Source: an uncultured Actinomycetes bacterium (GTDB lineage: Bacteria > Actinomycetota > Thermoleophilia > Gaiellales > F1-60-MAGs149). Taken from it: DNA of 64,000 bases. How positions within the stretch are numbered: the stretch's first letter is position 1; each line of letters begins with the position of its first letter. Of the stretch, positions 8,208 through 42,762 are shown in pieces. The stretch is taken from assembly GCA_963779685.1 (NCBI GenBank), contig CAVZZG010000001.1:748102-812101 (forward strand), read 5' to 3'. The position numbers were made by a program, and so were the translations under genes. The notes under the pieces were generated by a model. The model did no database searches. It was not told where the DNA came from and saw only the letters and a program-made list of their open reading frames with translations.

Positions 8208-10928
8208 TCAGCCCGTGGGCGTGTCCCCGGCGACGGCCGCGAGCTGGTCGAGCCGGACGAGCTCCGTGCGGGAGCGCACGCCGAGCTTGCGGTAGACGCG
8301 GGTGAGGTGACCCTCGACCGTCGACAGGCTCATGTACAGCTCGCCCGCGATCTCGCGGTTCCGACGTCCGGCGATGGCCAGCCGGGCGACCTGCGTCTCC
8401 GCCTCCGTCAGGTCGCCGCTCGACCGCCCGCGACTCATCCGCGCGAGCACCTCGGTGACCTGCCCGGCGAAGCCGGCCGCGCCGTGGGCCACGAACGCCT
8501 CCCGCGCTGCCTCGAGGGCCGCCGCGCCGTCCAATCGGCGCCCGGCGGAGAGTGCCGCCCGGCCGTGCGCGAGCCGTGCCCGCGCTGCGTCCGTATGGAA
8601 GCCGAGCTCGTCGAGCGTCGTTGCGGCCCGATCGAGCATGGGAACGGCGTCCGCCGCCTCCCCCGCCGCGGCCACCACGATCCCCCGGCTGACGACGCTG
8701 ATGGCATCGACCCAACGGCTCTGCGCGACCAGTGCCTGCGCCTCGAGGCGCGCGAGCCGCCCCTTCGCCTCGTCGATGGCCCCGGCGAGCGCCGCTGCCT
8801 CGATCGCGTCGGGCGTCGTCCGGAACACCGCCGGGTGGGCGAAGCCCATCGTCGTGACGAGATCGTCCGCCGATGCGAGCGCGGCGTACCCGGCCGGGGC
8901 ATCCCCGAGCGAGAGCGCGAGCAGCCCGAGGACGTGCGTGAGCCGCGCGATCCATGGCCGCTCGGCTCGCGCCTCGGCGCGCGCGAGCCGCGCCCGGGCG
9001 ACGGTGCGCGCCTCCTCCGCGCGTCCGAGCCACACCAGCGTGAGTGCGAGGGAGTGCTGCAGGAGGGCCTCGCCCCAGGTGTCGCGCGCGTCGCGGGCGG
9101 CCTCGATCCCCTCGTGGACGTTCTCCTCGGCACGGGCCAGCCGGCCGGCCGCGATGTCGAGCATCGCCGCGTCGTAGAGGCGGTAGGCGCGGGCGTTCTC
9201 GTCGTGCTGGCGCTCCTCCTGCTCCTGCGCCTGGGCGAGCGCCTCCGCTGCTCCGGGCAGGTCGCCGTCGAGGTACCGCAGCTCGGCGAGGCGGGCGTAG
9301 GGGCCGTCGTCGAGCGGCACACCATCGAGCGCCATCTCCTCCACCAGCAGCCGCCGGAGCGCGGCAGGCGTCTCTCGACCTGCGACGACCCGCATGTGCT
9401 CGAGCGTCCGGACGGCGGGGAGCGTGATGTCCTCAACGCCCGCGCGCCGGGCTGCAGCGACGGCCAGCGTGGCGACCGCGATGCCGTCGTCGAGGGCGCC
9501 GCGGTGCATGCCGCGCGCCCACCCGAGCCAGTCGAGGATCCGGGCCTGCAGCGCGTCGTCGTCGCCGGCCTCCGCGACCGCCTGCTCGAGCCAGCGTTCG
9601 CCAGTGGCGAAGTCGTCGTCCTCGACGAAGGCCCGTTCCATGATGGCCTCTGCGCGAGCCGGTCCCGATGGCAGCCGGGCGACCAGCGCATCCGCGGCCG
9701 CGAGCGACCGGGTCCACTCTCCCGCCTTCGCCAGAGCGCGGATCTCGGCGAGCCCGTATGCCAGGACGGCGTCGGTGTCGGGAGTTGCAGCGAGACGTCC
9801 GGCGTGGCCGGCGAGCTCACCGGCGAGGTCGAAGGCGCCGCGGGCAGCCATCCGCTCCGAGGCGGCGGCGACCTCACTCGCGATCGCGGGGGCGGGGCCG
9901 ACCGCGGACAGTGCGAGGTGGCGTACTCGCTCGTCGCCGTCCTCGACGACATCCGCGAGCCGGCCGTGCAGGGCGCGCCGGCGATCGGGTGGGATCCGCT
10001 CGTACACGACCGACTGGACGAGCGGGTGGTCGAAGCGCACGCGCCCGTCGCGATCGACGACGACGATCCCTTCGCGAACGGCGGCGTCGAGTGCCGCCGC
10101 CCCGTCCGGCGCCGCCGCGGCGATCAACGCCTGCGTCGGCCGACCACTCGCCGCCGCCACCTCCAGCACGCTGCGGACCGCCGGCGTCGACCGATCGAGC
10201 CGTGCCCCGATCGCCGCGGCGAGGGTGCCGGGTGCAGCACCGGGGGCGCCGCCGGCGTGGGCGCGCATCAGCTCGATCGCGTGCAGCGGATTGCCGCCCG
10301 AGGCCTCGTGGATCGCGCGCAGCACGGGAGCCGGCACGGTCGGTGAGACCGCGCGCAAGACCCTGCGCAGCTCGCGCGCGGGGAGCGGCCGGACGATCAC
10401 CTCCTCTCGTCGCTCCGGGCGGACGGCGGCGAGCAGGTCGGCAACCGGCTCGGAGCCTACGCCCGGGCGGACGGTGGCGAGGAACACGACCGGCTCATCC
10501 TCGAGACGGCGGATCGCGAACCGGATCGCCCGCGCCGACGCCGGGTCGAGCCAGTGCGCGTCGTCGATCGCGACGAGCACCGGGCCCTCTCGTGCGAGGG
10601 AGCGCAGGACGCCGAGGAACGCGCGGCCGTGGGCCGCGTGCGACTCCCCGGCGAGCAGCGGCGCGAGGTCGGCGCCGACCGCCTCGAACATGTCGACGAC
10701 CGCGACGAGCGGGAACGACAGTTCCTCCTCGGCCGGCCGGGCGGGGAGCACGACGTGGCCTGCCGCCCTCGCCCGTTCGATCCCAACGCGCCAGAGGGCG
10801 GACTTGCCGATCCCGGCCTCTCCGACGAGCACGAGTGAGCGCGCGCCACCAGTCGCCGCGGCGACGAAGGCGTCGATCCGGGCGAGTTCGGCCTGACGGC
10901 CGACGAGAGCCGTGCGAATGGCATCCAC
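8208..10928 (-). CDS. Large ATPase LuxR-family (LAL/MalT-like) transcriptional regulator
   Basis: Walker A GEAGIGKS, Walker B-like LVAIDDAHWLD, a long helical repeat middle region, and a C-terminal LuxR HTH (REIAGELYMSLSTVEGHLTRVYRKLGV). The start is placed at in-frame GTG 10928 (VDAIRTALVGRQAEL); the ORF is open up to 11156. Confidence 0.85.
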   Translation of the reverse strand: MDAIRTALVGRQAELARIDAFVAAATGGARSLVLVGEAGIGKSALWRVGIERARAAGHVVLPARPAEEELSFPLVAVVDMFEAVGADLAPLLAGESHAAHGRAFLGVLRSLAREGPVLVAIDDAHWLDPASARAIRFAIRRLEDEPVVFLATVRPGVGSEPVADLLAAVRPERREEVIVRPLPARELRRVLRAVSPTVPAPVLRAIHEASGGNPLHAIELMRAHAGGAPGAAPGTLAAAIGARLDRSTPAVRSVLEVAAASGRPTQALIAAAAPDGAAALDAAVREGIVVVDRDGRVRFDHPLVQSVVYERIPPDRRRALHGRLADVVEDGDERVRHLALSAVGPAPAIASEVAAASERMAARGAFDLAGELAGHAGRLAATPDTDAVLAYGLAEIRALAKAGEWTRSLAAADALVARLPSGPARAEAIMERAFVEDDDFATGERWLEQAVAEAGDDDALQARILDWLGWARGMHRGALDDGIAVATLAVAAARRAGVEDITLPAVRTLEHMRVVAGRETPAALRRLLVEEMALDGVPLDDGPYARLAELRYLDGDLPGAAEALAQAQEQEERQHDENARAYRLYDAAMLDIAAGRLARAEENVHEGIEAARDARDTWGEALLQHSLALTLVWLGRAEEARTVARARLARAEARAERPWIARLTHVLGLLALSLGDAPAGYAALASADDLVTTMGFAHPAVFRTTPDAIEAAALAGAIDEAKGRLARLEAQALVAQSRWVDAISVVSRGIVVAAAGEAADAVPMLDRAATTLDELGFHTDAARARLAHGRAALSAGRRLDGAAALEAAREAFVAHGAAGFAGQVTEVLARMSRGRSSGDLTEAETQVARLAIAGRRNREIAGELYMSLSTVEGHLTRVYRKLGVRSRTELVRLDQLAAVAGDTPTG

Positions 10929-11085
10929 GTGCCAGCCATTCTGACGGCATCGCGCTGCGCGGTAGGGTCGGTCGCGAGCGGGTCGAGGGGAAACCCCGTT
11001 GCCCGCCGGATGGCGTTCTGGCTCAATCAGCCTGGGATGCGGTAGGGCCGCGCCCGGGAATCTGACGGGAAGGAGTCGAGCGCTG

Positions 11086-11769
11086 GTGGTCGTCTTCGGC
11101 GAGTACGTCTCGGGCCTCACGATCGACGGTCGGGAGGTGCGCGCGGCGGTCTTCAACGAGCACGCGGTGCGGGCTGCGGCCGGCCTGACCCTGGTGCTCG
11201 GCGCCGTCGCGTTCGCCTACGCCTACTTCGACCAGGACTACGTCCCGTTGCAGGTGGTGACGACGGTCTTCTTCATCGACTTCCTGCTGCGCGTCACGAC
11301 CGGGCTGCGCTTCAGCCCGACGGGTTTGGCCGGCGGTTGGATGACCCGCCGCCGCGAGCCGGAGTGGACGTCGGCGAGGCCGAAGCGGTTCGCCTGGACG
11401 CTCGGCCTCGCGATGTCGTTCGCGATGATGGTGATCACGAACTCCGGCGTGCGCGGCCTCCTGCCGCGGACGGTCTGCCTGATCTGCCTGACGCTGATGT
11501 GGATGGAGTCCGTGCTCGGGCTCTGCCTCGGCTGCGAGGTGCACGGCCTCCTCGTTCGGGCCGGCCTCGCACGGCGCGACGATGCGTACGAGATCTGCGC
11601 ACACGGCGCGTGCACGGTCGTGCCGCGCTCCGAGATCGGAGACCGAGTCTCACGCGCTGCTGGTTTGCGAGGTGCGTGTGTGGGCTCGGACGAATCCCGT
11701 CTGCCGTCCGCATCCTTGGGTTGGGATGAGGTCGACAGGTCTGCTGGGGCTCCCAGAACGAGCGCGTGA
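11086..11769 (+). CDS. DUF4395-like membrane protein
   Basis: GGAAGGAG RBS lies 9 nt before GTG 11086. FNEHAVRAAAGLTLVLGAVAFAY is followed by further TM segments and the GLCLGC motif I associate with DUF4395. Confidence 0.65.
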   Translation: MVVFGEYVSGLTIDGREVRAAVFNEHAVRAAAGLTLVLGAVAFAYAYFDQDYVPLQVVTTVFFIDFLLRVTTGLRFSPTGLAGGWMTRRREPEWTSARPKRFAWTLGLAMSFAMMVITNSGVRGLLPRTVCLICLTLMWMESVLGLCLGCEVHGLLVRAGLARRDDAYEICAHGACTVVPRSEIGDRVSRAAGLRGACVGSDESRLPSASLGWDEVDRSAGAPRTSA

Positions 11770-11861
11770 GCGGTTCGCAGACCCGAGGGGTGTCCAGCGC
11801 GTCAGTTGAACTTCGGCGCGATCTGGGGCGGCCGCGGGCAGCGCGATGGCTGCTGCGCCGG

Positions 11862-12746
11862 CTACTTCGTGAATCGCTCCGCCGTGAAGTAGTTCGAACG
11901 GCTGCTGCCGTCCGTGAACTCGCTGTACGAGTTGACCGTCAGGACCCCGGTGCTCGAGATCGGCATGCCGGCAAGGAGGGTGCGCTTGAACCCGTAGTCG
12001 GCTGGCGCCAGGAACCGCGATCCGGTCGTCGCGGTCGTCGAGGGGCCGTAGGCGATGGCGGGCGTGACGCCGTTGTCGCACGGGGTCGGCGTGCACGCAC
12101 CGAACACGTGGACGAGCAGCGAGCCGTCAAGGGCCCGGGTGATGTCGAGCTCGACGGTTCCCCGCGTGTTGGGGTCGACGTTGTGCCAGACGCCGATGAG
12201 GGCATCCGGCGCGTGGGGCTGCCTGCCCGTCGGGTACGCGGTGGTGGCCGTTCCCTTCTTCCTGCTCGACGTCGCGCGGCCCACTCGCTTGAACGAACGG
12301 GTCATGGCCGAGTTGTGGCGAGAGCCGGCGTGGTAGACGTCGTACCAATCGAGAGCGATGCGCCGCCCGCGACTGGTGGAGACCAGTCGGCCCAAGAGCA
12401 CCTGGTTGTACGACGCGAGGACCTGATTCGTCTCGAAGACCGCGCCGGTCGTGGCACTCGCGGACGGGCCGAACACGACAGCGGAGAGCTTGCCCGACTC
12501 GCACAGCTTCGGCCTTCCGCACGTGCTGAACGCGTCGACCTTGATGCCGCCCCCGCTCGACTTGCTGATCACGAGCTTCACGATGCCGCTCCTGGCGGTG
12601 CTGGTCCAGGTACCGATCAGGCCGGAAGCGGCGCTCGGCGCGGCGCTCGCGGGTGCCGGCGCGAGGACCATGCCCGCCATCGCGGCGAGAAGCCCCACGA
12701 TGGTCGTGCCGCCGCCACGTGCGATCGTGCGTGTCTTCCCAACCAT
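11862..12746 (-). CDS. Secreted protein made of two tandem homologous domains
   Basis: GGGAGGAAG RBS before ATG 12746. Signal peptide MVGKTRTIARGGGTTIVGLLAAMAGMVLAPAPASA. The two halves begin LIGTWTS... and LIGVWHN..., and each carries a Cys pair (FSTCGRPKLCESG and FGACTPTPCDNG). Confidence 0.7.
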   Translation of the reverse strand: MVGKTRTIARGGGTTIVGLLAAMAGMVLAPAPASAAPSAASGLIGTWTSTARSGIVKLVISKSSGGGIKVDAFSTCGRPKLCESGKLSAVVFGPSASATTGAVFETNQVLASYNQVLLGRLVSTSRGRRIALDWYDVYHAGSRHNSAMTRSFKRVGRATSSRKKGTATTAYPTGRQPHAPDALIGVWHNVDPNTRGTVELDITRALDGSLLVHVFGACTPTPCDNGVTPAIAYGPSTTATTGSRFLAPADYGFKRTLLAGMPISSTGVLTVNSYSEFTDGSSRSNYFTAERFTK

Positions 12747-12876
12747 GGTCTTCCTCCCGCCGCGAACGTGGGACGCGTTCCGCTCGCCCGCTGCAGGATC
12801 ACACACGGCGAGTCCGCAGGCAACGTCGGGGTGAGATCACGGCACGGGCGGATGGGCTTGCGATGGCGGGACGGCG

Positions 12877-13095
12877 TCATGCCGATGGGCCGGCCTTCGA
12901 CGGGATCTCGTCCTTCTCGGCCCCGGGATCCGGCGGCCTGCGCCGCCGGCGGGCGACGTAGAACAGGCAGCCGGAGACGGCCACGGCTGCCTGTCCTCCC
13001 CAGAGGAGGGCGAGCGGCCAGGTGGCGGCGTGGCCGGCGTAGCCGGTCTGCGCGATCCGGCTGTTGCAGAGGCAGTCGAGGATCTCGCGCACCAT
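12877..13095 (-). CDS. Small (72 aa) putative membrane protein, last gene of the aminotransferase-permease operon
   Basis: The ATG lies 3 nt after the permease stop. Strong G/C third-position bias. One hydrophobic segment (WPLALLWGGQAAVAVSGCLFYV) is followed by RRRRR. Confidence 0.4.
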   Translation of the reverse strand: MVREILDCLCNSRIAQTGYAGHAATWPLALLWGGQAAVAVSGCLFYVARRRRRPPDPGAEKDEIPSKAGPSA

Positions 13096-13098
13096 CGT

Positions 13099-14562
13099 CT
13101 ACGCCGAGAGGTGCTGGGCCTCCTCGAAGATCTCCCTTCCACCCGTCTCGAGCCTGCCGGGCCTCGTCTTGTTCAGGTACAGGACGACCAGGATCCCGAT
13201 CACGAACCAGCACACGACCGCGATCGGGGCGATGTTGATCGGATAGGGCGGGAGCGGGACGATGCTGTAGTAGAAGACCGGCGCCAGGGCGATGAGGCCG
13301 AGGATGGGGAGCACGAGGTGCACGATCCACCTGAACTCGTCCCGGTGCTCGCGGAGGTAGAAGATCGGGACGGCGACCAGTCCGCACCCGTAGACGAAGA
13401 TCATGCCGAACGTGATCATCGCGCCGCCGATCCCGAACGTGTTGACGGTTCCGAAGTACCAGCCGCAGAACAGGCCGAGCGTGATGTTGAAGACGGTCTG
13501 AAGGGCGATCGCGACGTGGGGCGACCGGTAGTGCGGGTGGAGCGCGCCGAACTGCCGCGGGAACACGTGCACGGTCGCCATCTTGTAGTACACGCGCGTG
13601 ACGGCACTCTGCCCCGCCAGCGAGCAGCCCCAGCCGCTGTTGATCAGTGCCAGCAGCACGATGATCGTGCCAGCACTCCCCCAGGCCGTGTTCGCGATCG
13701 TGTAGTAGGGGTTGGCGGCGCTCGGGAAGTCCGACGCAACGTTGTCGATGCCGAAGCCGACAGCGGTGGCGAAGCCGAAGATCACGTAGTAGACGAGGAT
13801 CAGAGCGGTGCCGATCAGGGCGGCACGAGCGACGTTGCGCCTGGGGTTGCGTGTCTCCTCCGCCAGTGGCGCCGTCGACTCGAACCCCGTGTACGACAGC
13901 ACCGAGAACACCATCGCGAGGAACAACCCGTGCACCGCCGAGCTCCCCGGGATGCCCTTCGTCGTGAACCCGAGCGAGAGGTCGTGCGATGTCACCCCCT
14001 GCTGCGCGAAGATCGTGAACGAGAGCGCGAGCGTGATCCCCACCTCGACCAGCGTCAGGATGATCGCCGTCCTGATCGACAGCACGACGCCCAGGTACGT
14101 GATCACCCCGAGGCCGAGCCAGACGATGATCGAGTAGAGCCACCAGGGGAACGTGATCCCGTACTGCTGCTTCATCGTGTCCTCGGTGTACCCGCCGATG
14201 ATCACGGTGCAGAGGATGGGCACGATGGGGTCGTAGAGGAAGTACATCCACCCGGCCATGAACCCGAGCTTCGGGTTCAGCGCGCGGCTGATGTAGGAGA
14301 AGTAGCCGCCGGCCGACGGCAGGTGCTTGGCGAGCTGGGCGACGGAGTTGGCGAGCAGCAGCGCGGCGATGCCGGCGAGGCCGAACGCGAGCCCCATCGC
14401 CGGACCCGCGAACGAGGCGATGAACGGGGCCGAGAGCATCACGCCGGCGGCCGGAGCCATGTGGGTGATGCCCTGGAAGGTGATGCCAGTGAGGGTGAGC
14501 GAACCGCGGAGGAGCTGGATCTCCGGCTTCGGCTCCGGCGGCGGTGGCGGCGCTTCGCTCAT
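13099..14562 (-). CDS. APC-superfamily amino-acid permease (intact)
   Basis: 487 aa with about 12 TM segments. Motifs include GYFSYISRALNPKLGFMAGW and FESTAPLAEETRNPRRN. Confidence 0.9.
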   Translation of the reverse strand: MSEAPPPPPEPKPEIQLLRGSLTLTGITFQGITHMAPAAGVMLSAPFIASFAGPAMGLAFGLAGIAALLLANSVAQLAKHLPSAGGYFSYISRALNPKLGFMAGWMYFLYDPIVPILCTVIIGGYTEDTMKQQYGITFPWWLYSIIVWLGLGVITYLGVVLSIRTAIILTLVEVGITLALSFTIFAQQGVTSHDLSLGFTTKGIPGSSAVHGLFLAMVFSVLSYTGFESTAPLAEETRNPRRNVARAALIGTALILVYYVIFGFATAVGFGIDNVASDFPSAANPYYTIANTAWGSAGTIIVLLALINSGWGCSLAGQSAVTRVYYKMATVHVFPRQFGALHPHYRSPHVAIALQTVFNITLGLFCGWYFGTVNTFGIGGAMITFGMIFVYGCGLVAVPIFYLREHRDEFRWIVHLVLPILGLIALAPVFYYSIVPLPPYPINIAPIAVVCWFVIGILVVLYLNKTRPGRLETGGREIFEEAQHLSA

Positions 14563-27557: not shown

Positions 27558-28829
27558 CTATGTCGAGACGTGCGGCTGCGGCCGGTATGCCAGGTAGCCG
27601 CGCTGCGTCGCGATGTGGTCGGCCAGGTGCCTGGCGTCGTGCCACACGCCCCAGATGAAGCTCGATCCGCGCCGCGACAGCCACGGCAGCCCGAGGAAGT
27701 AGACGCCGGGCTCGGCCGACACGCCGCGCCGGTGCCGCGGCCGGCCGCGCTCGTCGAAGGCGTCGACCTGCAGCCAGCCGTAGTCGACGGCGAAGCCGGT
27801 CGCCCAGATGATCGAGGTCACGCCGGCGCTCGCCAGGTCGAGCTCGAGGATCGGATCGGTCACGCAGGCGGGGGCGGGCCCAGGATGCGCGCGTCCGGCT
27901 CCTCGGGGAGGTCGAGGCCGTTGCGCGCGACGTAGGCGTCGGCCTCGTCCAGCAGCGACAGGTAGTTGGCGTCGCCCTTGGCGATGTTGTCGCCGAGATC
28001 CGGCGCGAACCGCATCGCGCCGTCGTCGAACGACAGCGTCCGGCCGACGCAGCGTCATGCCGCGAGCGGCGAGGTCGCGGAAGTCGACGGTGTGGCCGCC
28101 GTCGGCTCCGCTGACCGCGATCGTGACGTGCTCGGCGCCCTGCGCGGGGGTCTCGGCGTCCCACTTGCCGAGGACGCCGAGCCACCAGACAGAAGTCGCG
28201 CCCGCGATAGCGCCGCGGCGGCCGGTCGTGCGGGCCGACCGAGAGGTAGACGCGCCGCCCCGACGCGCAGCAGCTCGTCGGCGATCTGCATGCCCGACGA
28301 TCCCGGCCCCGACCACGAGCACCGCGCCCTCGGGCAGCTGACCCGGGTTGCGGTAGCGCGCTGGAGTGGATCTGCAGTGGGCCCGGCATCGTCGGGAACG
28401 ATCGCCGGGATGACCGGGCGCTGGAACGGTCCGGTCGCGGCCACGACGTAGCGTGGCCTCGATGGTGCCGTCGGACGTCTCGACGCGAAAGCCGGGCCGG
28501 CCGACGTTCCTGCGCACCGACGTCACCTCGACGCCGCACCGGATCGGCGCCGCGATCTTCTCCGCGTAGGCCACGAAGTAGTCCGCGACCCGTTCCTTGG
28601 AGGCGAAGGCGTCGGGGTCGACGTCGGAGAACTCGAGGCCCGGGAACCGGTCGTGCCAGGCGGGGCCGTTCGCGACCAGGGAGTCCCACCGCCCGGAGCG
28701 CCAGCGCTCGGCGATGCGCTGCCGCTCGAGAACGAGGTGCGGCACGCCGCAGCTGCTCAGATGCTCGCTCATGGCGAGACCGGCCTGGCCCGCGCCGACG
28801 ACGAGTACCTCGACCGTTTCGCTCGCCAT
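27558..28829 (-). pseudogene. Flavin-containing (FMO/Baeyer-Villiger-like) NAD(P)/FAD oxidoreductase, at least 7 frame breaks
   Basis: ATG 28829 opens MASETVEVLVVGAGQAGLAMSEHL. The sequence can then be followed through VVAATGPFQRPVIPAIVPDDAG / LQIHSS / RYRNPGQLPEGAVLVVGAG / SSGMQIADELLR / RRVYLSVGPHDRPPRRYRGRDF / WWLGVLGKWD... / VGRTLSFDDGAMRFAPDLG... / VTSIIWATGFAVDYGWL to the stop at 27558. Confidence 0.7.
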
Positions 28830-34619: not shown

Positions 34620-35567
34620 CTATGGGGTGAGCACGATCTTGCCGCGCACGCCGCCGGCCTCGAGGGCGCGGTGGGCGTCGGCAGCTGCCGCTAGCGGCAG
34701 GACCCGATCGACCAGCGGGCGTAGCCGCCCGTCGGCGGCGAGCCCGGCCAACTCGTCGAGCCCAGTCCGGGACGGCGACGTGAAGAAGAGATGCAGTTCG
34801 ATGCCGCGCTGCCAGCCGGCCAGCAGCACCTGCGGCCGGTCGGTGTCGACGATGCTCGCGATCCGGCCGTCTGGCGCCAGCAGCTCGAGTGCCTGCTCGA
34901 TGGCGGCGCCCCCGACCGTGTCGAGCACCACGTCGACGCCGCGGCCGTCGGTCGCGGCCAGCGTCGCCGCGACCGTGTCCTGGGTGCGGTAGTCGATCAC
35001 GACGTCGGCGCCGAGGTCGCGCACGAGGGCGGCATTGGCCGCCCGGCAGGTCGCGATCACGCGCGCCCCTCGGAGCGTGGCCAGCTGGACGGCGAAGGAG
35101 CCGACGCCGCCGGCGCCGGCGTGCACCAGCACCGTCTCACCGGGGGCCAGGCGGGTGCGGGTGAGCGCCTCGCGCGCCGTCAGGCCGGCGACGGGCAGCG
35201 TCGCGGCCTCGATCGCCGCGAGCCCCGCCGGGCGCCGCGCCACCAGCGCTGCCTCGATCGCGTGGAGCGTCGCATAGGTGCCGTGACCGGTGAAGAGCAG
35301 GGCCATCGCCAGCACGCCGTCGCCGACCGCGAGGTCGGTCACGCCCACCCCAACGGCGAGGACCGTGCCGGACAGGTCGGAGCCGACGACCAGCGGCACC
35401 GCCGCCTGGTCGGCGTAGTCGCCGCGGCGTGTCTGCACGTCGACCGGGTTCGCGGTCGTCGCCTCGACCCGCACCAGCACCTCGCCGGGGCCGGCCGCCG
35501 GGTCGGGAAGCTCGCGCTGCTCGAGCACGTCGGGCCCGCCGAACCGGCTGACGACGATGGCCCGCAC
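34620..35567 (-). CDS. Quinone oxidoreductase / zinc-type alcohol dehydrogenase (MDR) family
   Basis: GTG 35567 opens VRAIVVSRFGGPDVLE. Also present are LVHAGAGGVGSFAVQLA and GKIVLTP at the C-terminus. 315 aa. Confidence 0.85.
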   Translation of the reverse strand: MRAIVVSRFGGPDVLEQRELPDPAAGPGEVLVRVEATTANPVDVQTRRGDYADQAAVPLVVGSDLSGTVLAVGVGVTDLAVGDGVLAMALLFTGHGTYATLHAIEAALVARRPAGLAAIEAATLPVAGLTAREALTRTRLAPGETVLVHAGAGGVGSFAVQLATLRGARVIATCRAANAALVRDLGADVVIDYRTQDTVAATLAATDGRGVDVVLDTVGGAAIEQALELLAPDGRIASIVDTDRPQVLLAGWQRGIELHLFFTSPSRTGLDELAGLAADGRLRPLVDRVLPLAAAADAHRALEAGGVRGKIVLTP

Positions 35568-35596
35568 GAGCGCATCGTAGCCATCGGGCCTTGATC

Positions 35597-38500
35597 TCAG
35601 TCGTCGACCTGCCCGGCCAGCGCGAGCGAGTCGACGCGGTCGCCGACGAGCAGCCGCACCCGCACGACCGCCCGCGTCACCCACGCCTCGCGCGCGAGCC
35701 GCTCGACGCGGCGCTCGGCGCTGTACACCACCACGTGGCCGGTCGCGGGCGGTCTCGACGACGAAGCCGGTGAAGTCGCCGAAGTGGTCGTAGCGCAGCG
35801 AGACGACCTTGCCGGTGACCGTGCCGGCGGCCGTGGCATCGCGGTCGTCGCCGGACTCGTCGTCGCGGTCGTGCCCGTGGCCGTCGTGCGGCCCGTGGCC
35901 GCCGCACCACTTCCACGGGTGCTTCCAGTCGCCGTCGCCGGTCGCGACGATGATCGTCGGGTCGCCGCCCATGCCGGCGACGCGGCCCGCGTAGAGGTCG
36001 ACGTACCGGCGGAACACCGGCCACCACTTCGTCTCGAGCGGCACCGACTGCTCGATGTGGCGCAGGATCGACAGCGTGCGCTCCTCGTCGGCAGGAGCAT
36101 CGGCGCCTTGGTGCTGACCGGGATCTCGAGGCCGAAGGCGCCGATCGTACGTCGGTAGAGGAAGCCCTTGCGGGACTCCGTCATCGAGGGAGCTCTTCAT
36201 GACCGTCGCAGGGGCGACGGCGCCGATCGCGACGTTGCACGTGCTTGCGCGCCGCGCGATCGTCTCGTGCCGATCTCGACCTGCCGCCCGACGCCGAAGC
36301 GGGCGCCGGTGATCTGGCGCACCCGCACCGAGTAGCGCTCGCCCTTGTGCACGGTCGGCGGCAGCTCGACGGCCATCAGGCCGACGTGGTCGACGGTCGG
36401 ACGGCGCCCGGCACCGGCACGAACGTCACGCCGCCGGCCTCGCAGCGACGAGCGTGTGGGCGTCGACGAGCGCGAGCCGGTTCGAGACGTACATCGTGTG
36501 CGCCCAGTCGAGCGCGGCGGCCGCGTCGACGGTCGGCAGGTAGATCGACGCGCCGGGTGCCGGCCGGGCACGTTGCCCCAGTCGATCATCAGCTCGTCGG
36601 GCCGGCCGTCGAGCGGCGACGGCCGGCGTCGGCCGGATCTGCAGCGTCTGCGGAGCCACCCGCGAGTCGACCACGCCCGGGTTCGGGACGCCGACGAAGG
36701 TGAGGTTGCGCTGCGCGAGCTTGTCGGAGGTCGACGGGTCGGCCGCAGTTCGGGATCGTCTGGCCGTCGAGGTTGAGCTCGACGATGCAGGCACTGGTGG
36801 AGGCTGCGAACGTGCTGCTGGATCGACAGCAGCGGGCCCGTGCCCTGGAACGGCCCGTCCGGCAGGTTGGCCGGCGTCGATGCCGATCAGCCGCGCCGGG
36901 GAAGCGCAGGTCGGTGGGCTGGTTGATGTCGAGCCAGCAGCCGAAGTAGGCGACGACCTCCGCGCCCGAGGCTGTCGTGGACGATCGTGCGGACGTTCGG
37001 GGCGTCGGTCTGCGTGGTCATGCTGACCGTCGCCGAGTTCGACGCGCGGCTCGGCGAAGAACGGGATCGTCATGATCTCGTCGCCCTGCCGACCGAGCAG
37101 CGGCACGTGGCGCGACCCCGCGGTGAAGCGTGCGGTAGAGCGTGGTCGGGTCATGGACGGCGTTCGTCTGCTGGGCCGGCCACATGCGGAAGAACGCGCG
37201 CACGTTCGGCGCGTCCTGGTTGAGGTCGCGTAGCCGCACCCGGCGACGGCGAAGTTGAAGACGCCGGTGCCCGGCGCCGTCGGTCGGCGCGAGCGTCAGC
37301 GCCTCGGGGTCCTCGTGCGGGTCGATCGCGTCGAACTCGCTGCCCAGCGCCGGGATGCCCGTTCAGGTTGGTGAGCACGCGACTGGATGAAGCTCGTTGC
37401 GACGTTGCCGGCGGCGCCGCTCGTCGCGAGCGTCGCGCCGAAGCGGTGGCCGCCCTCGGTGACCTGGAAGACGCGGATGTCGATGCTCGTCCACCAGTCG
37501 AGGCCGCGACCCGGGTCGCCGTCGAGGATGTACGGGTCGGGCGACTGGAGCAGGCGCAGCACGCCGGCGTTGGCGACGGTCTGGCCGGCGGCGGTGAGCA
37601 CGGCCGTCGCGGTGATGATCCTGCGATCGGCCCGGTGAAGCTGAACATCGCGTCGCTGTCGAAGCTGGAGGACGAACGGGAACGTGAACCGCTGCGGCAC
37701 GTTCGGCGGCATGCTCGGATCCTCCGGCAGCACCTTGCCCCGCTGCACGACGTGCAGTCCGCCGACGGGGACGGGAAGGTCGGCGACGATCGGCGGCGAC
37801 GCGAGGTTCGCGGCGGTCAGGCCGAGCTCGGCGGCGGTGTAGCCCTCGACCACCACGAGGATGGCGGGATCGATCATCGGCCGGCGCCCCGTTCAGCGAG
37901 ATCAGCGCCTGCACCTCGCCGTGGCCCGACGGTCGAGCGGTCCATGACGAGGAAGCAGTCGCGGGTGCCGACGCTGACCGGGCAGCGCCGCCGAGGCGAT
38001 GCCGTTGGCGACCACCTCGAGGTTCCAGGCGCCGGGCGGGATGTTCGCGGGCACCTCGACGACGGCGGTGACCGTCGCCGTCCCGGTCGCGATGCCCATC
38101 GTCGAGAAGTCGCGCGTGCGCAGGTAGTGCACGTCGCCTGAGGCATTCGTCAGCCGGACCAGCGGGTAGTTCGTGGCGTTCTGGCGGTCGTCGCCGTAGC
38201 CGTTGGCGTGGGTGAGGCCGTTCAGCTGGGTGCCGGCGATCTGGTATGCGTGCCCGGCGATCAGCGCCGACGGGGCGGCCGTGAGCGGTCGGCCGCCAGG
38301 ACGCCTGCGGCGTCAGCTCGGCCGCGTCCGGGGCGTACTCGTTGATCGTGTTCTGCTCGCCGCTCATCAGCACGTGGCCGTTGGGCAGCAGCAGGAAGCA
38401 GCACTGCCAGGTGTGCCCGGGCGGGCTCGACGGCTGGTTCGGCTGCGTCGTCAGGGTGGTGGCGGTCTCGTTGACGTCGCAGATCGTGACCGGCCCCGAG

Positions 38501-39489
38501 AAGAACTGGCCGCCTGCGTCGACCGGGCCCGAGGTGACGAGCACGTGGCCGTTGGGCAGCACGACGACGGCGCCGTCGAGCGAGGTCTGCAGGCCGGCGG
38601 GGGCGTTGGTGTTGCCGGCGTCGGCCGGGCAGGTCGGGCCCGGCGACCCATGAGCCCTTGGCGGTCGGGGTCGCACCGGAGGTGTAGACGCCGGTGTGGC
38701 CGCTACCGCCGACGAAGAACGCCTTGCCGTTCATCAGCGTCACGGCCCCGCCGATCTCGTTCAGCGTCGTGCCGCCGATCGCGCCGACCGGCAGCGTCGA
38801 GGCGGTCGACGCCCGCGCTCACCCACTCGTCGCGGCGACGGCACGTACATCTCGGCGTTCTGGGTCGTGGTCGTGCCTGCGATCTGCACCGTGAGCACGT
38901 TGCCGTTGGGCAGCAGGCACCAGCTCTCCTCGTTGGCGGCGCCCACCTTGGTGTTGGCGACCGTGCCGAACTTCGTGCCCGACTCGATCCAGGTGTCGGT
39001 GACCGGATCCCAGATCGCGTTGCGCGGCCGTCGAGAGCGCGCCGAACATGACCCGGCCGTCCTCGAGCACGATCGAGACGCAGTCGCCGACGATGAAGTC
39101 GAAGCCCGGCGTCGGCTTGTTCAAGCGTCGACCAGGTGCCGGATCCGGGCTCGAAGATCTCGGCGCGGGTGTCGTTGTCGGTGTTGGTGTCGGTGTCGCC
39201 GAGGATGTCGGAGTACTCGCCGCCGACGACGAACACGCGGCCGTCCTTCAGCACGCCGCTGCCGAAGTACTTGCGCTGACCGGTCATCGGCAGCGCGCTC
39301 GACCAGGTGCCGTTGCGGTAGTCGCCGTGACCGTCAGGCGTGAGGCGGTACCAGTTGCGCCCGCCGTAGGTGTCGCTCGAGCGACGGCCGGTTGGCGTCG
39401 TGCACGAGCACGGTGCCGTCGGTGAGTAGCAGCATGGTGCCGGCCCTGCACGCCCGACGGTGCGTTGAACGTGTTCCAGGTGCCGCTCA
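35597..39489 (-). pseudogene. Heavily frame-broken (at least 20 breaks) large locus with N-terminal Kelch/galactose-oxidase-like beta-propeller + Ig-like domain and an uncharacterised ~750-codon remainder. It reads as one long gene but could be 2-3.
   Basis: GAGGAGGGG RBS 4 nt before ATG 39489. MSGTWNTFNAPSGVQ / AGTMLLLTDGTVLVHDAN / GRRSSDTYGGRNWYRLTPDG...GVLKDGRVFVVGGEY / LNKPTPGFDFIVGDCVSIVLEDGRVMFGA / ESWCLLPNGNVLTVQ / TLMNGKAFFVGGSGH / VVVLPNGHVLVTSGP...LLLPNGHVLMSGE are the blades. TVTAVVEVPANIPPGAWNLEVVANG is Ig-like. Unassigned segments follow, ending GKVVSLRYDHFGDFTGFVVET...VRVRLLVGD and the stop at 35597. Confidence 0.55.
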
Positions 39490-39743
39490 TCGAGCCCCTC
39501 CTCGGTCCGGAATGCGTGCGCACGCGCCGCGACGGCCGTCGCCAGCCGTCTCCGCGCGTCACCGTGGCGTCACGCCGACGAACGCCGTACCCGGAGACGA
39601 ACCTCGATCACGCATGGCGCGGGTTCGAGCGGGCCGGCAGTACACGTCTGCTGTTAGCAGGGTGGGCCCCGGCCGCGGCAGATTCAAGGACAGGTACGCC
39701 TAGCTTTGGGGCGGGACACGGCCTGGCCTGGTGGGCTAGCCCG

Positions 39744-40904
39744 TCACTTGAACGGCACGGTGACGGGCCCCGGCACGCGTTGGTACACGGCGAAGAAGTC
39801 GCGGTCGTCGGGCACGAGGTAGCGCGTCTTCGGCTGCTGGTAGTTGGGCACGACCTTGACCGGGCCGAGCCCGCCACGGTGGGTGTAGGTGATCAGCGTC
39901 GGCCACTCCGGGTTGATGTCGAGCTGCATCGCGCGCACGGCGCCGGCCCGCTGCAGGATCGTCGCGAGGGTGGTCACCGTCTGCCAGTCGGCCGCGGCGT
40001 AGATGAGGTTGCCGTGCCGGTCGATGCCGGCGCCCGTGCGCCAGACGCGGGTGGCGTTGCCGAGGGTGTAGCCCCACTGCGAGCTGTCGTTCAGGGCCGG
40101 GTTGAGGCGCCCGTGGTCGACGATCAGGGGCAGGCTCTGGCGCGCGAAGGCGATGTCGGGGCCGGCCACCGCACCCGCGCGCCAGCGCTTCACGTCGACG
40201 CGGCCGTCGCGGTACGCGACCAGCGTCGCGAGGCCCTGCTTGAGCGGTTCGTACTGCCTGCCGTTGATCGACGATCCGTTGCTGCCGTCCTTGTAGATGA
40301 AGCCGCCGTTGAACGTCGCGAGCAGGCGCCAGCGCTGGTCGTGGGGCACTTGCATCGGCCCCCGCACCGGCGCGCTGGGCGGTTCGTAGCGGCCGGGGTA
40401 CCAGCTGACCGCGGTGCGCGAGCTGTCGAACCAGGCGAGATAGGCGAGCGTCCGCGGGTAGGCGACCTCGGGCCGGAAGGTCGTCACGAGCACGGGCGGC
40501 CTTCCGGCCATGACGGGGCCGGTGCCCGACCACACGCCCTCGCCCGGCAACGCGTGTCTGAAGGCCAGATCGATCTTCGGTGGCGTCTCCATGGCGGCCG
40601 TGGTGGCCGGTGGAGGGCCGACGCCGAGCTTCGGCACGCTCCTCAGCTGGGGGCCGCCAGGGTCCGGCGCCTGCCAGCTGAAGTAGTAGTGCTCGACCTC
40701 GTCCACGAGCCAGTTGCCGTGGTGCTGGCGGATCCATTCGACGCTGCGCGGCCACAACGGCAGGCTCGACGGCTGCAGCATCGACGTCGTGTAGGAGTAG
40801 GCCACGGGCACGAGCAGCACCAGCGCCACGACCGCCGCCCAGCGCCCGGCGCGCCGCCGCCGGCGTCGTCGGCGGGGAGGGCGCGCGCTCCTGGTCAACT
40901 CCAC
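39744..40904 (-). CDS. Phosphodiester glycosidase (NAGPA/DUF2233) family protein, membrane-anchored
   Basis: GTG 40904 opens VELTRSARPPRRRRRRRRAGRWAAVVALVLLVPVAY (TM anchor). The C-terminal domain contains LATFNGGFIYKDGSNGSSINGRQY...GAGIDRHGNLIYAAA...QLDINPEW. Confidence 0.8.
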   Translation of the reverse strand: MELTRSARPPRRRRRRRRAGRWAAVVALVLLVPVAYSYTTSMLQPSSLPLWPRSVEWIRQHHGNWLVDEVEHYYFSWQAPDPGGPQLRSVPKLGVGPPPATTAAMETPPKIDLAFRHALPGEGVWSGTGPVMAGRPPVLVTTFRPEVAYPRTLAYLAWFDSSRTAVSWYPGRYEPPSAPVRGPMQVPHDQRWRLLATFNGGFIYKDGSNGSSINGRQYEPLKQGLATLVAYRDGRVDVKRWRAGAVAGPDIAFARQSLPLIVDHGRLNPALNDSSQWGYTLGNATRVWRTGAGIDRHGNLIYAAADWQTVTTLATILQRAGAVRAMQLDINPEWPTLITYTHRGGLGPVKVVPNYQQPKTRYLVPDDRDFFAVYQRVPGPVTVPFK

Positions 40905-41623
40905 GACCGGGCCTCCGCTCCGTCGGCGACGGGCAGCAGCCGGGTGCCGAGGCCGGATCGCTGAAGTGCGTGAGCGATGGCGGGGAGCGCCCGGCACGTG
41001 CGCCCGTACGAGCCGCTCGCGCCGTAGCGGTCGGAGTCGTGCAGCAGGAGGATGTCGCCGGCGCGGAGACCGCGCGCGACCCGCCGGCCGATGCTGTCTG
41101 CGGTTGCGGCGGCCTGCCAGTCGCGGCCCCAGCGGGTCCAGCTGACGAGCAGCAGGCCGTGTCGACGTGCGTACTGGAGCGTGGCGAGGCTCGTGGCGCC
41201 GAACGGCGCCCGGATGGCGCGCACCGACTGGCCGGTGACGTTCTCGAGCGTGCGCTGAGCCGTCGCCAGGTCGGCCGTGAGGCGGTGCGGGTTGCGTAGC
41301 GGATGGGGCGCGTGGCCGGCGCCGTGCAGCTCGACCCGGTGGCCGGCGGCACACATGGCGCGGACGAGGCCTTCGTGCCGCGCGGCGCTGTCGTGCATCA
41401 CGAAGAACGTGGCGCACAGCCCCAGTCGGTCGAGCTCGGCGAGGATCGCGGGTGTACCTCGTGGATGCGGGCCGTCGTCGAACGTGAGCGCGACGGCGGG
41501 AACGTCGCCGGGCAGCCGGCGTACCACGCCGGGAAACCGCAGCCGGCCGACGCTGCCCAGGCCGGGGGCGGCGTTCGCGGCCACCAGCCCGGCGGCGAGG
41601 ATCAGCGGGCCGCTGCGTGCCAC
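40895..41623 (-). CDS. Polysaccharide deacetylase (NodB/CE4) family
   Basis: Contains ALTFDDGPHPRGTP, FFVMHDSAARH and VELHGAGH. The start is placed at GTG 41623, overlapping the upstream GT by 22 nt. The rest of the 40895..42592 ORF is an alternate frame. Confidence 0.8.
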   Translation of the reverse strand: MARSGPLILAAGLVAANAAPGLGSVGRLRFPGVVRRLPGDVPAVALTFDDGPHPRGTPAILAELDRLGLCATFFVMHDSAARHEGLVRAMCAAGHRVELHGAGHAPHPLRNPHRLTADLATAQRTLENVTGQSVRAIRAPFGATSLATLQYARRHGLLLVSWTRWGRDWQAAATADSIGRRVARGLRAGDILLLHDSDRYGASGSYGRTCRALPAIAHALQRSGLGTRLLPVADGAEARSWS

Positions 41624-42762
41624 GGTGAAGGAACGGGGGTACCGGAGTAGGCTACGGTCGCCGCCGGCTGCGGGGCGAGTGCCGCCAGCAGCTCGCCGCA
41701 CTGCGGGCGGTCGAACAGCAGTCGGGCCTGGCCGGCCGTGTTCGGCGCGGTCTCGGCCCAGAAGCGGCTCGCCGCGAGCTGCGCCGACAGCGCTGCCTGG
41801 TCTTCGGCGAGCGTGACGAGACCGTTGGTCGCGAGCAGTTCCGCGTTGGCCTCGCCGTGTCCGGGCAGCGGCTGGTACATGACCACCGCGAGCCCCACCC
41901 GGAACGCCTCCAGGCAGGTGAGGCCGCCGGCGTTCTGAATCAGGACGTCGCTGGCGGCCATCAGCTCGGGCAAGTCGTGCGCGAATCCCACCACCGTTCC
42001 GGGGCGCAGCGCCGGGTCGGCGGCGAGGCGTGTCCACAAGGCCTGGTTGTGGCCGCAGACCACGATCGGCACGCACCCCGCCGCGCTGCACGCCGCCGCG
42101 GCGCCGGTGAGGTCGCCCGTGCCCCAGGCGCCGCCGACGATCAGCGCGACCCGATCCCCGGCCGTCAGCTTCAGACGGCCGCGAACCTCGCGACGAGCGC
42201 CGGGCGCGGCCAGGTGGGCCGCGATCGGCGGCTGGATGGCCACGAGCGAAGAGGTGGCGGCGCCGACGGTGAGGTTGGCGTCGAGCGCGCGGTGGATCCA
42301 GGCCGGGTGCGGATCGACGTCCGTCACGATCGCCGCACACGGCGTCGGCAGCCGCCGTCGCCGGCGAAGTCCGGCCAGGGCGGCCGACACCAGCGGATAG
42401 GTCGAGACCACGAGCGTCGCCTCGCATTCCGCGATCCGGACCCGAAGGCGGCGGCCTCCCGCCCGTGCCAGCAGCGAGCCGACCAGCCGCATCAGGCGCG
42501 TCGAGCGCGTCACCCGGTACAGGATCCGCCACGACCAGGGAGCGTGCTCGAGCTGGAGGTGGTAACCGTCGACGACGATCCGCTCGATCCACCGGCCCAG
42601 CAGCGCCAGCCCGTCATCGGTCTCGACGGTGTAGCCGCGAGCTGCCAGTTCCGCCGCCACGCCGCGGGCGGCGGCGTCGTGCCCGGCCCCGACCGGCGCC
42701 GACAGGATCAGCGCGCGCCGGGGCGGGCCGGGGTACGCATCCGCTGTCGGGCGGCGAGCCAC
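41602..42762 (-). CDS. GT28-type glycosyltransferase (MGDG-synthase/MurG-like)
   Basis: 386 aa. Contains LILSAPVGAGHDAAARGVAAEL, a central LIVGGAWGTG and a C-terminal SDVLIQNAGGLTCLEA. Confidence 0.8.
   Translation of the reverse strand: MARRPTADAYPGPPRRALILSAPVGAGHDAAARGVAAELAARGYTVETDDGLALLGRWIERIVVDGYHLQLEHAPWSWRILYRVTRSTRLMRLVGSLLARAGGRRLRVRIAECEATLVVSTYPLVSAALAGLRRRRRLPTPCAAIVTDVDPHPAWIHRALDANLTVGAATSSLVAIQPPIAAHLAAPGARREVRGRLKLTAGDRVALIVGGAWGTGDLTGAAAACSAAGCVPIVVCGHNQALWTRLAADPALRPGTVVGFAHDLPELMAASDVLIQNAGGLTCLEAFRVGLAVVMYQPLPGHGEANAELLATNGLVTLAEDQAALSAQLAASRFWAETAPNTAGQARLLFDRPQCGELLAALAPQPAATVAYSGTPVPSPWHAAAR

Follow-up and report, generated by a model that had tools for sequence, protein, structure and literature searches.

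The window analysed here is a 64,000-nucleotide (nt) stretch of DNA from an uncultured Actinomycetes bacterium. The element in question is a minus-strand gene for a large protein that joins a Kelch beta-propeller head to a C-terminal module of ~780 residues, which we call the chassis; all coordinates are positions in the window. Between 35597 and 39490, protein-like sequence was dispersed across all three frames of the minus-strand translation, and a plot of GC content at third codon positions showed the coding frame changing about every 130 nt. We reconstructed the coding sequence by a frameshift-aware search for the best path, using codon log-odds derived from long open reading frames (ORFs) of the same genome. 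The path gave a single unbroken reading of 1,291 residues from an ATG at 39490 to a TGA at 35599-35597, requiring ~32 frame changes and crossing no in-frame stop. A sequence-only reading of the window had proposed one continuous protein of about 1,290 codons with no stop at the junction of head and tail. Both proposals agree with this path and with intact relatives, in which the two parts are fused; all 17 of its quoted peptide blocks are present in the given order, and its start coordinate, 39489, was one base off. The gene and its parts are listed below.

35597..39490, minus strand: whole gene as assembled, 3,894 nt (3,852 nt without the extra bases), for a leaderless Kelch-head and chassis protein of ~1,285 amino acids
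39495..39503, minus strand: ribosome-binding site GAGGAGGGG, read directly from the sequence, 4 nt 5' of the ATG at 39490
38280..39490, minus strand: Kelch beta-propeller head, residues ~1-400, from weak Kelch and GlxA matches and profile matches to galactose oxidase and GlxA chains
37967..38279, minus strand: immunoglobulin (Ig)-like (E-set-like) domain, residues ~401-504, from its position after the propeller and its sequence pattern
37557..37966, minus strand: predicted chassis beta-sandwich 1, starting at DCFLVMDRSTVGHGE, from the AlphaFold2 model and a hidden Markov model (HMM) segment found in all head types
37491..37556, minus strand: conserved low-confidence loop, NP(F/Y)xL.GD, with invariant P, P and G residues and a predicted local distance difference test score (pLDDT) below 50
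36621..37490, minus strand: predicted chassis beta-sandwich 2 with a helical insert and a conserved core (WLDINQP, HQC, DKLAQRNL, NPG), from AlphaFold2 models; HQC codons at 36799-36791
36296..36601, minus strand: predicted chassis beta-sandwich 3, from the AlphaFold2 model and HMM segments
35964..36188, minus strand: predicted long beta-hairpin and two helices, from the AlphaFold2 model and HMM segments
35823..35954, minus strand: disordered His/Asp-rich linker (HGPHDGHGHDRDDESGDDRD), pLDDT below 50, with compositionally similar tracts in homologues
35612..35822, minus strand: predicted small C-terminal alpha/beta domain (GKVVSLRYDHFGDFTGFVVET...), from the AlphaFold2 model, present in most but not all head types

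The reading as one gene was supported by its homologues. The stitched sequence had more than 700 homologues among 5.8 billion proteins searched; nearly all of the best 120 were 1,200-1,350 residues long with the whole C-terminal region covered, and more than 100 database proteins share the fused head-tail architecture. The closest match, P0001, is an intact protein of 1,283 amino acids, collinear with the window reading end to end and 87% identical to its stitched C-terminal region. Its gene lies on L005, a JGI metagenome contig of a close relative in which gene order is the same. Read in the L005 frame, the window has 94.5% amino acid identity to P0001 over all 1,283 residues and no internal stop. 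The methionine of MIDPAILVVV is an internal residue, for which the orthologue has EVDPAIFVVV. Across 185,579 species genomes we found 298 loci, and in the best 80 the head and tail lay in one ORF without exception (80/80), none of them with a stop or start at the head-chassis junction. A split into two or three genes is thus ruled out, and ordinary separate genes, which the sequence-only reading had entertained as a possible outcome among homologues, were not seen. On this comparative evidence the locus is one large gene and a two- or three-gene reading is refuted.

The gene is flanked by a zinc-type dehydrogenase downstream and a NAGPA-family gene upstream, with a Fic gene further downstream. 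The two immediate neighbours had been described as intact and are so: each is a single open frame with complete Pfam domain matches, as is the Fic gene, and frame events were nearly absent from the two in a frameshift-aware scan. The strong ribosome-binding site that had been claimed is present 4 nt before the ATG, and no N-terminal hydrophobic signal was seen in the window protein, in line with the claimed lack of a signal peptide. Around the block, mobile-element boundaries were absent in the form of flanking repeats, tRNA or Rfam matches. A paralogue was not found elsewhere in the organism's own genome, nor a homologue among 40 relatives. The dehydrogenase starts ~35 nt past the Kelch gene stop on the same strand (35561-35599), with no terminator-like site between them; the two genes may be co-transcribed, in this organism only.

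The frame breaks were characterised by comparison with L005. Over 1,348 nt, window 39741-41088 and the NAGPA-gene region of L005 were 95.8% identical without a gap, and the gene block (window 35595-39740) aligned at 92.8% identity with 64 gap positions over 4,153 nt. The breaks occupy one further feature.

35738..39565, no strand assigned: indel-dense stretch with ~47 indel events relative to L005 at a mean spacing of 81 nt, the differing block being bounded at 35595 and 39740 by structural difference in L005

In a global nucleotide alignment, the window gene differed from that of L005 by 37 one-base insertions and 6 one-base deletions, together with two 2-nt insertions, one 3-nt insertion and one 4-nt insertion. 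Few of the single-base insertions (6 of 37) adjoined an identical base, and the spacing of indels looked random (mean 81, standard deviation 89). The substitutions appeared to be under selection and followed a pattern resembling that of the flanking gene: third positions accounted for 142 of 219 differences, 126 codon differences were synonymous and 67 non-synonymous (a rough ratio of non-synonymous to synonymous rates, dN/dS, of ~0.2), and no new stop had arisen, with 0 nonsense substitutions among 222 mismatches. Indels were not enriched near mismatches, which rules out that the insertions came from merging two haplotypes at single-nucleotide polymorphism sites.

Neutral bacterial decay is deletion-biased and slippage-prone, with many substitutions per indel. 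The locus is contrary to it on all three counts. This matters for the idea that the locus is a true pseudogene, an accessory gene decaying in a lineage with genome-wide gene loss, which would account for breaks that begin and end near the gene limits between two clean neighbours, for the absence of the gene from 40 relatives (it is therefore dispensable) and for the lack of predicted events in rpoB and rpoC. Set against these points are the excess of insertions over deletions (37 versus 6, all single bases and mostly outside homopolymers), opposite to the bias expected of decay, and the predominance of third-position changes without a single nonsense mutation among the 222 mismatches. Relaxed constraint, in the form of nonsense substitutions or a dN/dS near 1, was not found, and neither was an indel spectrum of deletion bias, varied lengths and slippage contexts. 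Most hot-spots of the genome are alike in density and extra-base bias, and an essential single-copy gene, rplS, is likewise frameshifted. We consider decay improbable.

The noise extends across the assembly, which comprises 4 contigs and 4.26 Mb at 94% completeness. A genome-wide Viterbi pass with frameshift states predicted 2,872 frame events, or 0.67 per kb. The 4-kb bin holding our gene was the densest in the genome, with 31 events compared to a mean of ~2.7; its description as the most degraded locus therefore holds, at a density far above background. Another ~33 patches of 0.6-5 kb carried 5-14 events per kb, most of them biased to extra bases (~3:1 overall). These hot-spot patches have the look of insufficient polishing and will give rise to false pseudogenes. 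Examples are C1:886878-896270, C1:641564-651364, C3:33768-40921 and C1:334937-336986, and 27875-28450 within the window; at C3:1641638-1647838 three adjacent hot-spots show the reverse bias, with missing bases in 28 of 38 events, unlike most others. The sole genome match to rplS (ribosomal protein L19 family), at C3:75823-76150 (loci L090/L091), is divided over two frames that cover profile positions 2-89 and 88-111; since rplS is essential, its frameshift points to technical indels. As a pattern, the breaks point to consensus error in a noisy assembly of long-read style and away from decay.

Taken together, the ~45 frame breaks very probably arose as consensus errors in assembly, and an intact copy most probably exists in the organism. 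Of the two conditions offered in the sequence-only reading, inactivated or badly assembled, the second is the better reading in view of the break pattern and the noisy assembly, and the lack of stops and the insertion bias speak against the first. Three points weigh against a technical origin. First, rpoB and rpoC contain no predicted events, so the noise is patchy. Second, the indel-dense stretch matches the gene to within ~150 nt at both ends, which coverage-driven error alone would not obviously be expected to do. Third, this origin is deduced from the assembled sequence and not from reads of the source sample. Contigs from X1, the only read run found, matched the block at ~94-95% without the extra bases, with near-identical pieces of only 31-47 nt and at low depth; these contigs are from a relative and not from the assembled strain. 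No RNA run came to light.

The limits of the block may explain how closely the errors fit the gene. Its ends coincide with structural differences, the helicase gene of L005 upstream and a short dispersed repeat downstream. Absent from 40 relatives and in a different context in L005, the block is read as an accessory segment, and if it is bounded by structural variants, low or mixed read support in a metagenome would have led to a poor consensus.

Several structural differences between the two contigs were observed. A 3.1-kb PLD/DEAD/DUF3427 helicase gene (L005:1607-4696) lies exactly between the NAGPA and Kelch genes of L005 and is absent from the window (39740/39741). Window 41089-42668 (~1.6 kb) is missing from L005. 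A 59-66-nt element just downstream of the orthologue (L005:8849-8911) is a small dispersed repeat that does not follow the gene in the window; at least 8 copies occur in the window's genome at 89-97% identity, for instance at C3:2238798-2238856, C3:353609-353669 and C1:1299034-1299096.

The N-terminal region had been described as Kelch or galactose-oxidase-like. It is indeed led by Kelch blades, and it is galactose-oxidase-like in fold only, the copper ligands not being conserved. Pfam Kelch matches were weak in the window copy, and Kelch_1 exceeded its cut-off in some homologues; the only PHROGs match on the head was one uncharacterised Kelch-region family. Among PDB entries, the family profile matched galactose oxidase, GlxA and designed Kelch proteins (1gof, 2eie, 4unm) over one or two blades only. 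As in galactose oxidase, glyoxal oxidase and GlxA (CAZy family AA5), a Kelch-type beta-propeller with blades that match by profile is followed by an Ig-like (E-set) domain. The window family differs in lacking the conserved copper ligands (two Tyr, two His) and the cross-linking Cys, in lacking a signal peptide and in carrying ~780 extra C-terminal residues; PF07250 (Glyoxal_oxid_N) and PF09118 (GO-like_E_set) were not detected in this subfamily.

These data bear on whether the head is an active radical-copper oxidase of the galactose/glyoxal oxidase type (AA5) with a long tail. Profile matches to galactose oxidase and GlxA chains and an NCBIfam GlxA match at E 9e-7 favour an oxidase, as do two chassis proteins of related subfamilies, P0232 and P0267, which match GO-like_E_set (PF09118) and also carry Glyoxal_oxid_N. 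The GlxA score, however, is 27.5 bits against a family cut-off of 800. Among 56 full-length homologues, head residues 1-520 contain no Cys that reaches 90% conservation and only one conserved His, and the Ig-like domain has no conserved His. The blade that carries Tyr272 in galactose oxidase reads FFAS here, and a signal peptide is absent. To judge from these alignments, the radical-copper site is not conserved, and AA5 membership fails on its defining feature while the fold type is shared. We regard an active copper oxidase as very improbable; in the attachment reading proposed below, the Kelch head of this subfamily would instead be a binding module.

In contrast to the head, the C-terminal ~780 residues resembled nothing characterised. 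Searches against Pfam (2025), NCBIfam (2026) and PADLOC gave no match, and PHROGs gave one weak match only, to a tape-measure family (E 0.079). Sequence and profile searches of the PDB (2026) matched the Kelch part only and no part of the chassis. Neither these searches nor structure prediction of the repaired region produced a confident match to a characterised family, in keeping with the earlier statement that ~750 C-terminal codons were unassignable: none of the libraries tested has a characterised family that matches these ~750-780 residues. A stand-alone search with the small C-terminal domain returned 32 matches, all of them short unnamed ORFs or fragments, many on short contigs, with no annotated family among them.

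The chassis was modelled with AlphaFold2 from a 60-sequence alignment, giving a pLDDT of 82 and a predicted template modelling score of 0.80. In model numbering, the predicted parts are beta-sandwich 1 (1-142), the conserved disordered loop (145-161), beta-sandwich 2 with its helical insert (164-445), beta-sandwich 3 (456-555), the long hairpin with two helices (596-659) and the small alpha/beta domain (710-778); the His/Asp-rich linker between the helices and the small terminal domain is disordered in the model. Sandwich 2, modelled alone, reached a pLDDT of 81. It is strongly conserved, with 104 of ~305 positions at 90% or more, and is rich in Arg, Gln, Asp and Asn. The Cys of the HQC motif is invariant in 198 of 198 sequences. 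An obligatory disulfide between the two conserved chassis Cys is ruled out, the GCW Cys being Ala or Ile in 21 of those 198. Because the HQC Cys is invariant and the other conserved Cys is replaceable, the alignment argues for a free functional Cys in HQC rather than a disulfide. In a subset of homologues the small terminal domain is Cys-rich and ends in -CC, -CXC, -CCX, -CCXX or -CCXXX, with further internal paired Cys; examples from alignments A2/A4 are ...GGAAGCC, ...TTRCEC, ...VPYCCG, ...PPECCGD and ...DCCDSD. This version may be a metal cluster or a lipidation-like motif.

Foldseek matched the whole C-terminal model only to generic tandem Ig-like proteins, namely PrgB, SdrG/Clf adhesins, integrin legs and MG-domain proteins, at E 5e-7 to 1e-4 and probability 0.84-0.94, with template modelling (TM) scores of only ~0.1-0.2. 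Sandwich 2 alone found no relative (best E 4e-3). The chassis thus has in common with MSCRAMM-type adhesins (SdrG, ClfA/B, Cna, PrgB) and MG-domain proteins (alpha-2-macroglobulin, CD109) its predicted tandem Ig-like beta-sandwiches, for which these are the best Foldseek matches. It differs from them in its low TM-scores (~0.1-0.2), in having no sequence similarity to them and no significant match for sandwich 2 alone, and in lacking LPXTG, a signal peptide and a CxEQ thioester; its invariant Cys lies in HQC.

The same module occurs behind many other heads. We made a sandwich 2 profile from 45 genomic loci and used it to query 1.84 billion representative proteins; 911 clusters (at 50% identity) contained sandwich 2 at E ≤1e-3, 422 of them at E ≤1e-30. 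Among 206 members with a recognisable module start, the N-terminal regions formed at least 18 unrelated clusters, and at least 12 unrelated heads sit on the chassis. Heads identified by Pfam were Kelch/GO-like, pro-kumamolisin with S8/S53, LodA_N/C, BNR, peptidase M14, protein-glutaminase, tyrosinase, M35, M4 with an FTP propeptide, phosphoesterase/phospholipase C and ConA-like lectin; several further heads had no Pfam match. The module starts with the same motif, DCF..DRSTFG.DE, in every head type and is collinear through the helices, and the small terminal domain is present in most head types. A hydropathy and motif scan (not SignalP) found a Sec or TAT signal in 0 of 178 complete heads. The gene is single-copy, with exactly one in each of 12 genomes (12/12). 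No conserved neighbour genes were found in the best 80 loci or in four inspected contexts, including that of the intact orthologue on L005.

These results show that a fixed module of ~780 residues carries interchangeable heads of exo-enzyme type in leaderless single-copy genes without a conserved partner. The sequence-only reading had suggested an undescribed system. This goes too far for the locus, a stand-alone gene without conserved partners; its C-terminal module, however, defines a large superfamily with interchangeable heads that was not found described in Pfam, NCBIfam, the PDB or the searchable literature. The module was also absent from the literature searched, which covered Kelch proteins and defence, the combinations of heads, LodA-like proteins and the Ralstonia S53 peptidase.

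The closest comparison by architecture is with secreted multidomain proteases and oxidases that have C-terminal beta-sandwich tails (PPC, PKD, Ig-like, CBM). These likewise combine a catalytic head with beta-sandwich modules, and S53, M4 with FTP, M14, M35, tyrosinase and phospholipase C heads are usual in them. The chassis family differs in having no Sec or TAT signal in those 178 heads and in a tail that is one fixed collinear unit of 780 residues, not a set of shuffled small domains, and that matches no known tail family. Features of type 1 secretion or autotransporters were also not seen: nearby transporter genes are not conserved, the AlphaFold2 model has no barrel, and RTX or Hemolysin-type Pfam matches are absent. 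We rate the chassis protein as a multidomain enzyme or lectin with a non-catalytic tail, in an uncharacterised family.

The family is widely distributed. Kelch-head members occur in at least 10 phyla with up to 79% identity between phyla, an identity that suggests recent horizontal transfer. A Ralstonia solanacearum member with an S53 head lies at the edge of an island resembling an integrative and conjugative element (ICE), with ParB_N, RadC, NikA-like and H-NS genes. Beside these, the island (loci L104-L106, S53-head gene at 10001-13900) has SRAP, HU, N6-methyltransferase and many small ORFs; in one strain the left flank of the S53-head gene is ordinary chromosome.

This pattern could also be expected of a single-gene anti-phage or abortive-infection device in which, by analogy with Avs and NLR-like proteins, the chassis would be the sensor and the variable N-terminal heads the effectors. 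In Avs/NLR-like proteins, too, a conserved C-terminal region is combined with a range of unrelated N-terminal domains, all within one horizontally moving gene. The variable N-terminal domain, the missing signal peptide, the patchy distribution of a single gene with signs of horizontal transfer, the ICE-like island location in Ralstonia and the PLD/DEAD/DUF3427 helicase as upstream neighbour in L005 would all suit such a device. Yet PADLOC (PADLOC-DB 2.0) assigned four members to 0 families, and the chassis family lacks an NTPase or other known switch domain. Its heads (tyrosinase, LodA, pro-thermolysin, pro-sedolisin, carboxypeptidase, lectin, Kelch) are of the usual exo-enzyme sort and not typical abortive effectors, and its neighbourhoods are not consistently defence islands. 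A defence role appears unlikely to us.

Overall, the explanation we find best, and think rather probable, is that of a single intact gene with breaks due to consensus error, encoding a Kelch head on a head-independent chassis. Since one module serves every head, the chassis would supply a service that does not depend on the head. As to what that service is, we tentatively propose that the chassis brings the head to a target surface or polymer, or fixes it there. Attachment is preferred because the heads usually act extracellularly, because adhesin-like Ig arrays are the only structures that the chassis resembles, and because of the conserved polar cluster. The adhesin-like beta-sandwiches would do the binding, and the invariant polar cluster in sandwich 2 (His-Gln-Cys, Glu, Asp-Lys-x-x-Gln-Arg-Asn) may bind a ligand or metal or be reactive itself. 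Release from the cell would rely on a non-Sec route or on lysis. A bolder and less probable version, which we would still take seriously, is that the chassis is a new self-contained device that exports, surface-targets or covalently attaches its cargo enzyme, possibly through the invariant His-Gln-Cys, without partner genes and in both monoderm and diderm bacteria.

Several considerations weigh against these proposals. The adhesin resemblance of the predicted structure is generic, with a TM-score of ~0.1. We know of no exit route for a leaderless protein of ~140 kDa without partner genes in either monoderms or diderms. An invariant free Cys fits a cytoplasmic enzyme and a surface module equally well. 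The roles proposed for the chassis are drawn from sequence and predicted structure.

A different service would be latency, maturation or metal delivery, with the chassis acting within the molecule as a cap or chaperone: until processing, it would hold the head inactive or provide it with metal. Zymogens and metalloenzymes are common among the heads (S53 and M4 with propeptides, M35, M14, tyrosinase), the linker is rich in His and Asp, and the invariant His-Gln-Cys and conserved acidic residues could bind metal. In latent phenoloxidases the active site is shielded by the hemocyanin/prophenoloxidase C-terminal domain, which sandwich 2 weakly resembles (Foldseek probability 0.2-0.3); this Foldseek evidence is not significant. 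However, 780 residues would be very large for a cap, and for BNR, lectin and LodA heads no need of a metal centre or of zymogen activation is known, so that we hold this role to be about as doubtful as defence. The remaining probability goes to something else.

For this genome, the locus should be treated neither as a pseudogene nor as a sign of decay; patches of its error-dense kind will mislead annotation. For the family, attachment of the head to a surface or polymer remains the role we favour, and the chassis, joined to protease, oxidase, phospholipase, deamidase, lectin and propeller heads in ~900 clusters, has no family, structure or literature that we found, all its members being without signal peptides although the heads are classic extracellular enzymes. 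Culturable carriers include Xylanimonas sp. McL0601 (Kelch head), Ralstonia solanacearum (S53; WP_052491352.1) and Nocardia (M14), which makes the question directly testable. If the chassis is indeed a targeting, export or activation device, it would represent a new route by which bacteria deploy enzymes and a ready-made scaffold for protein engineering.

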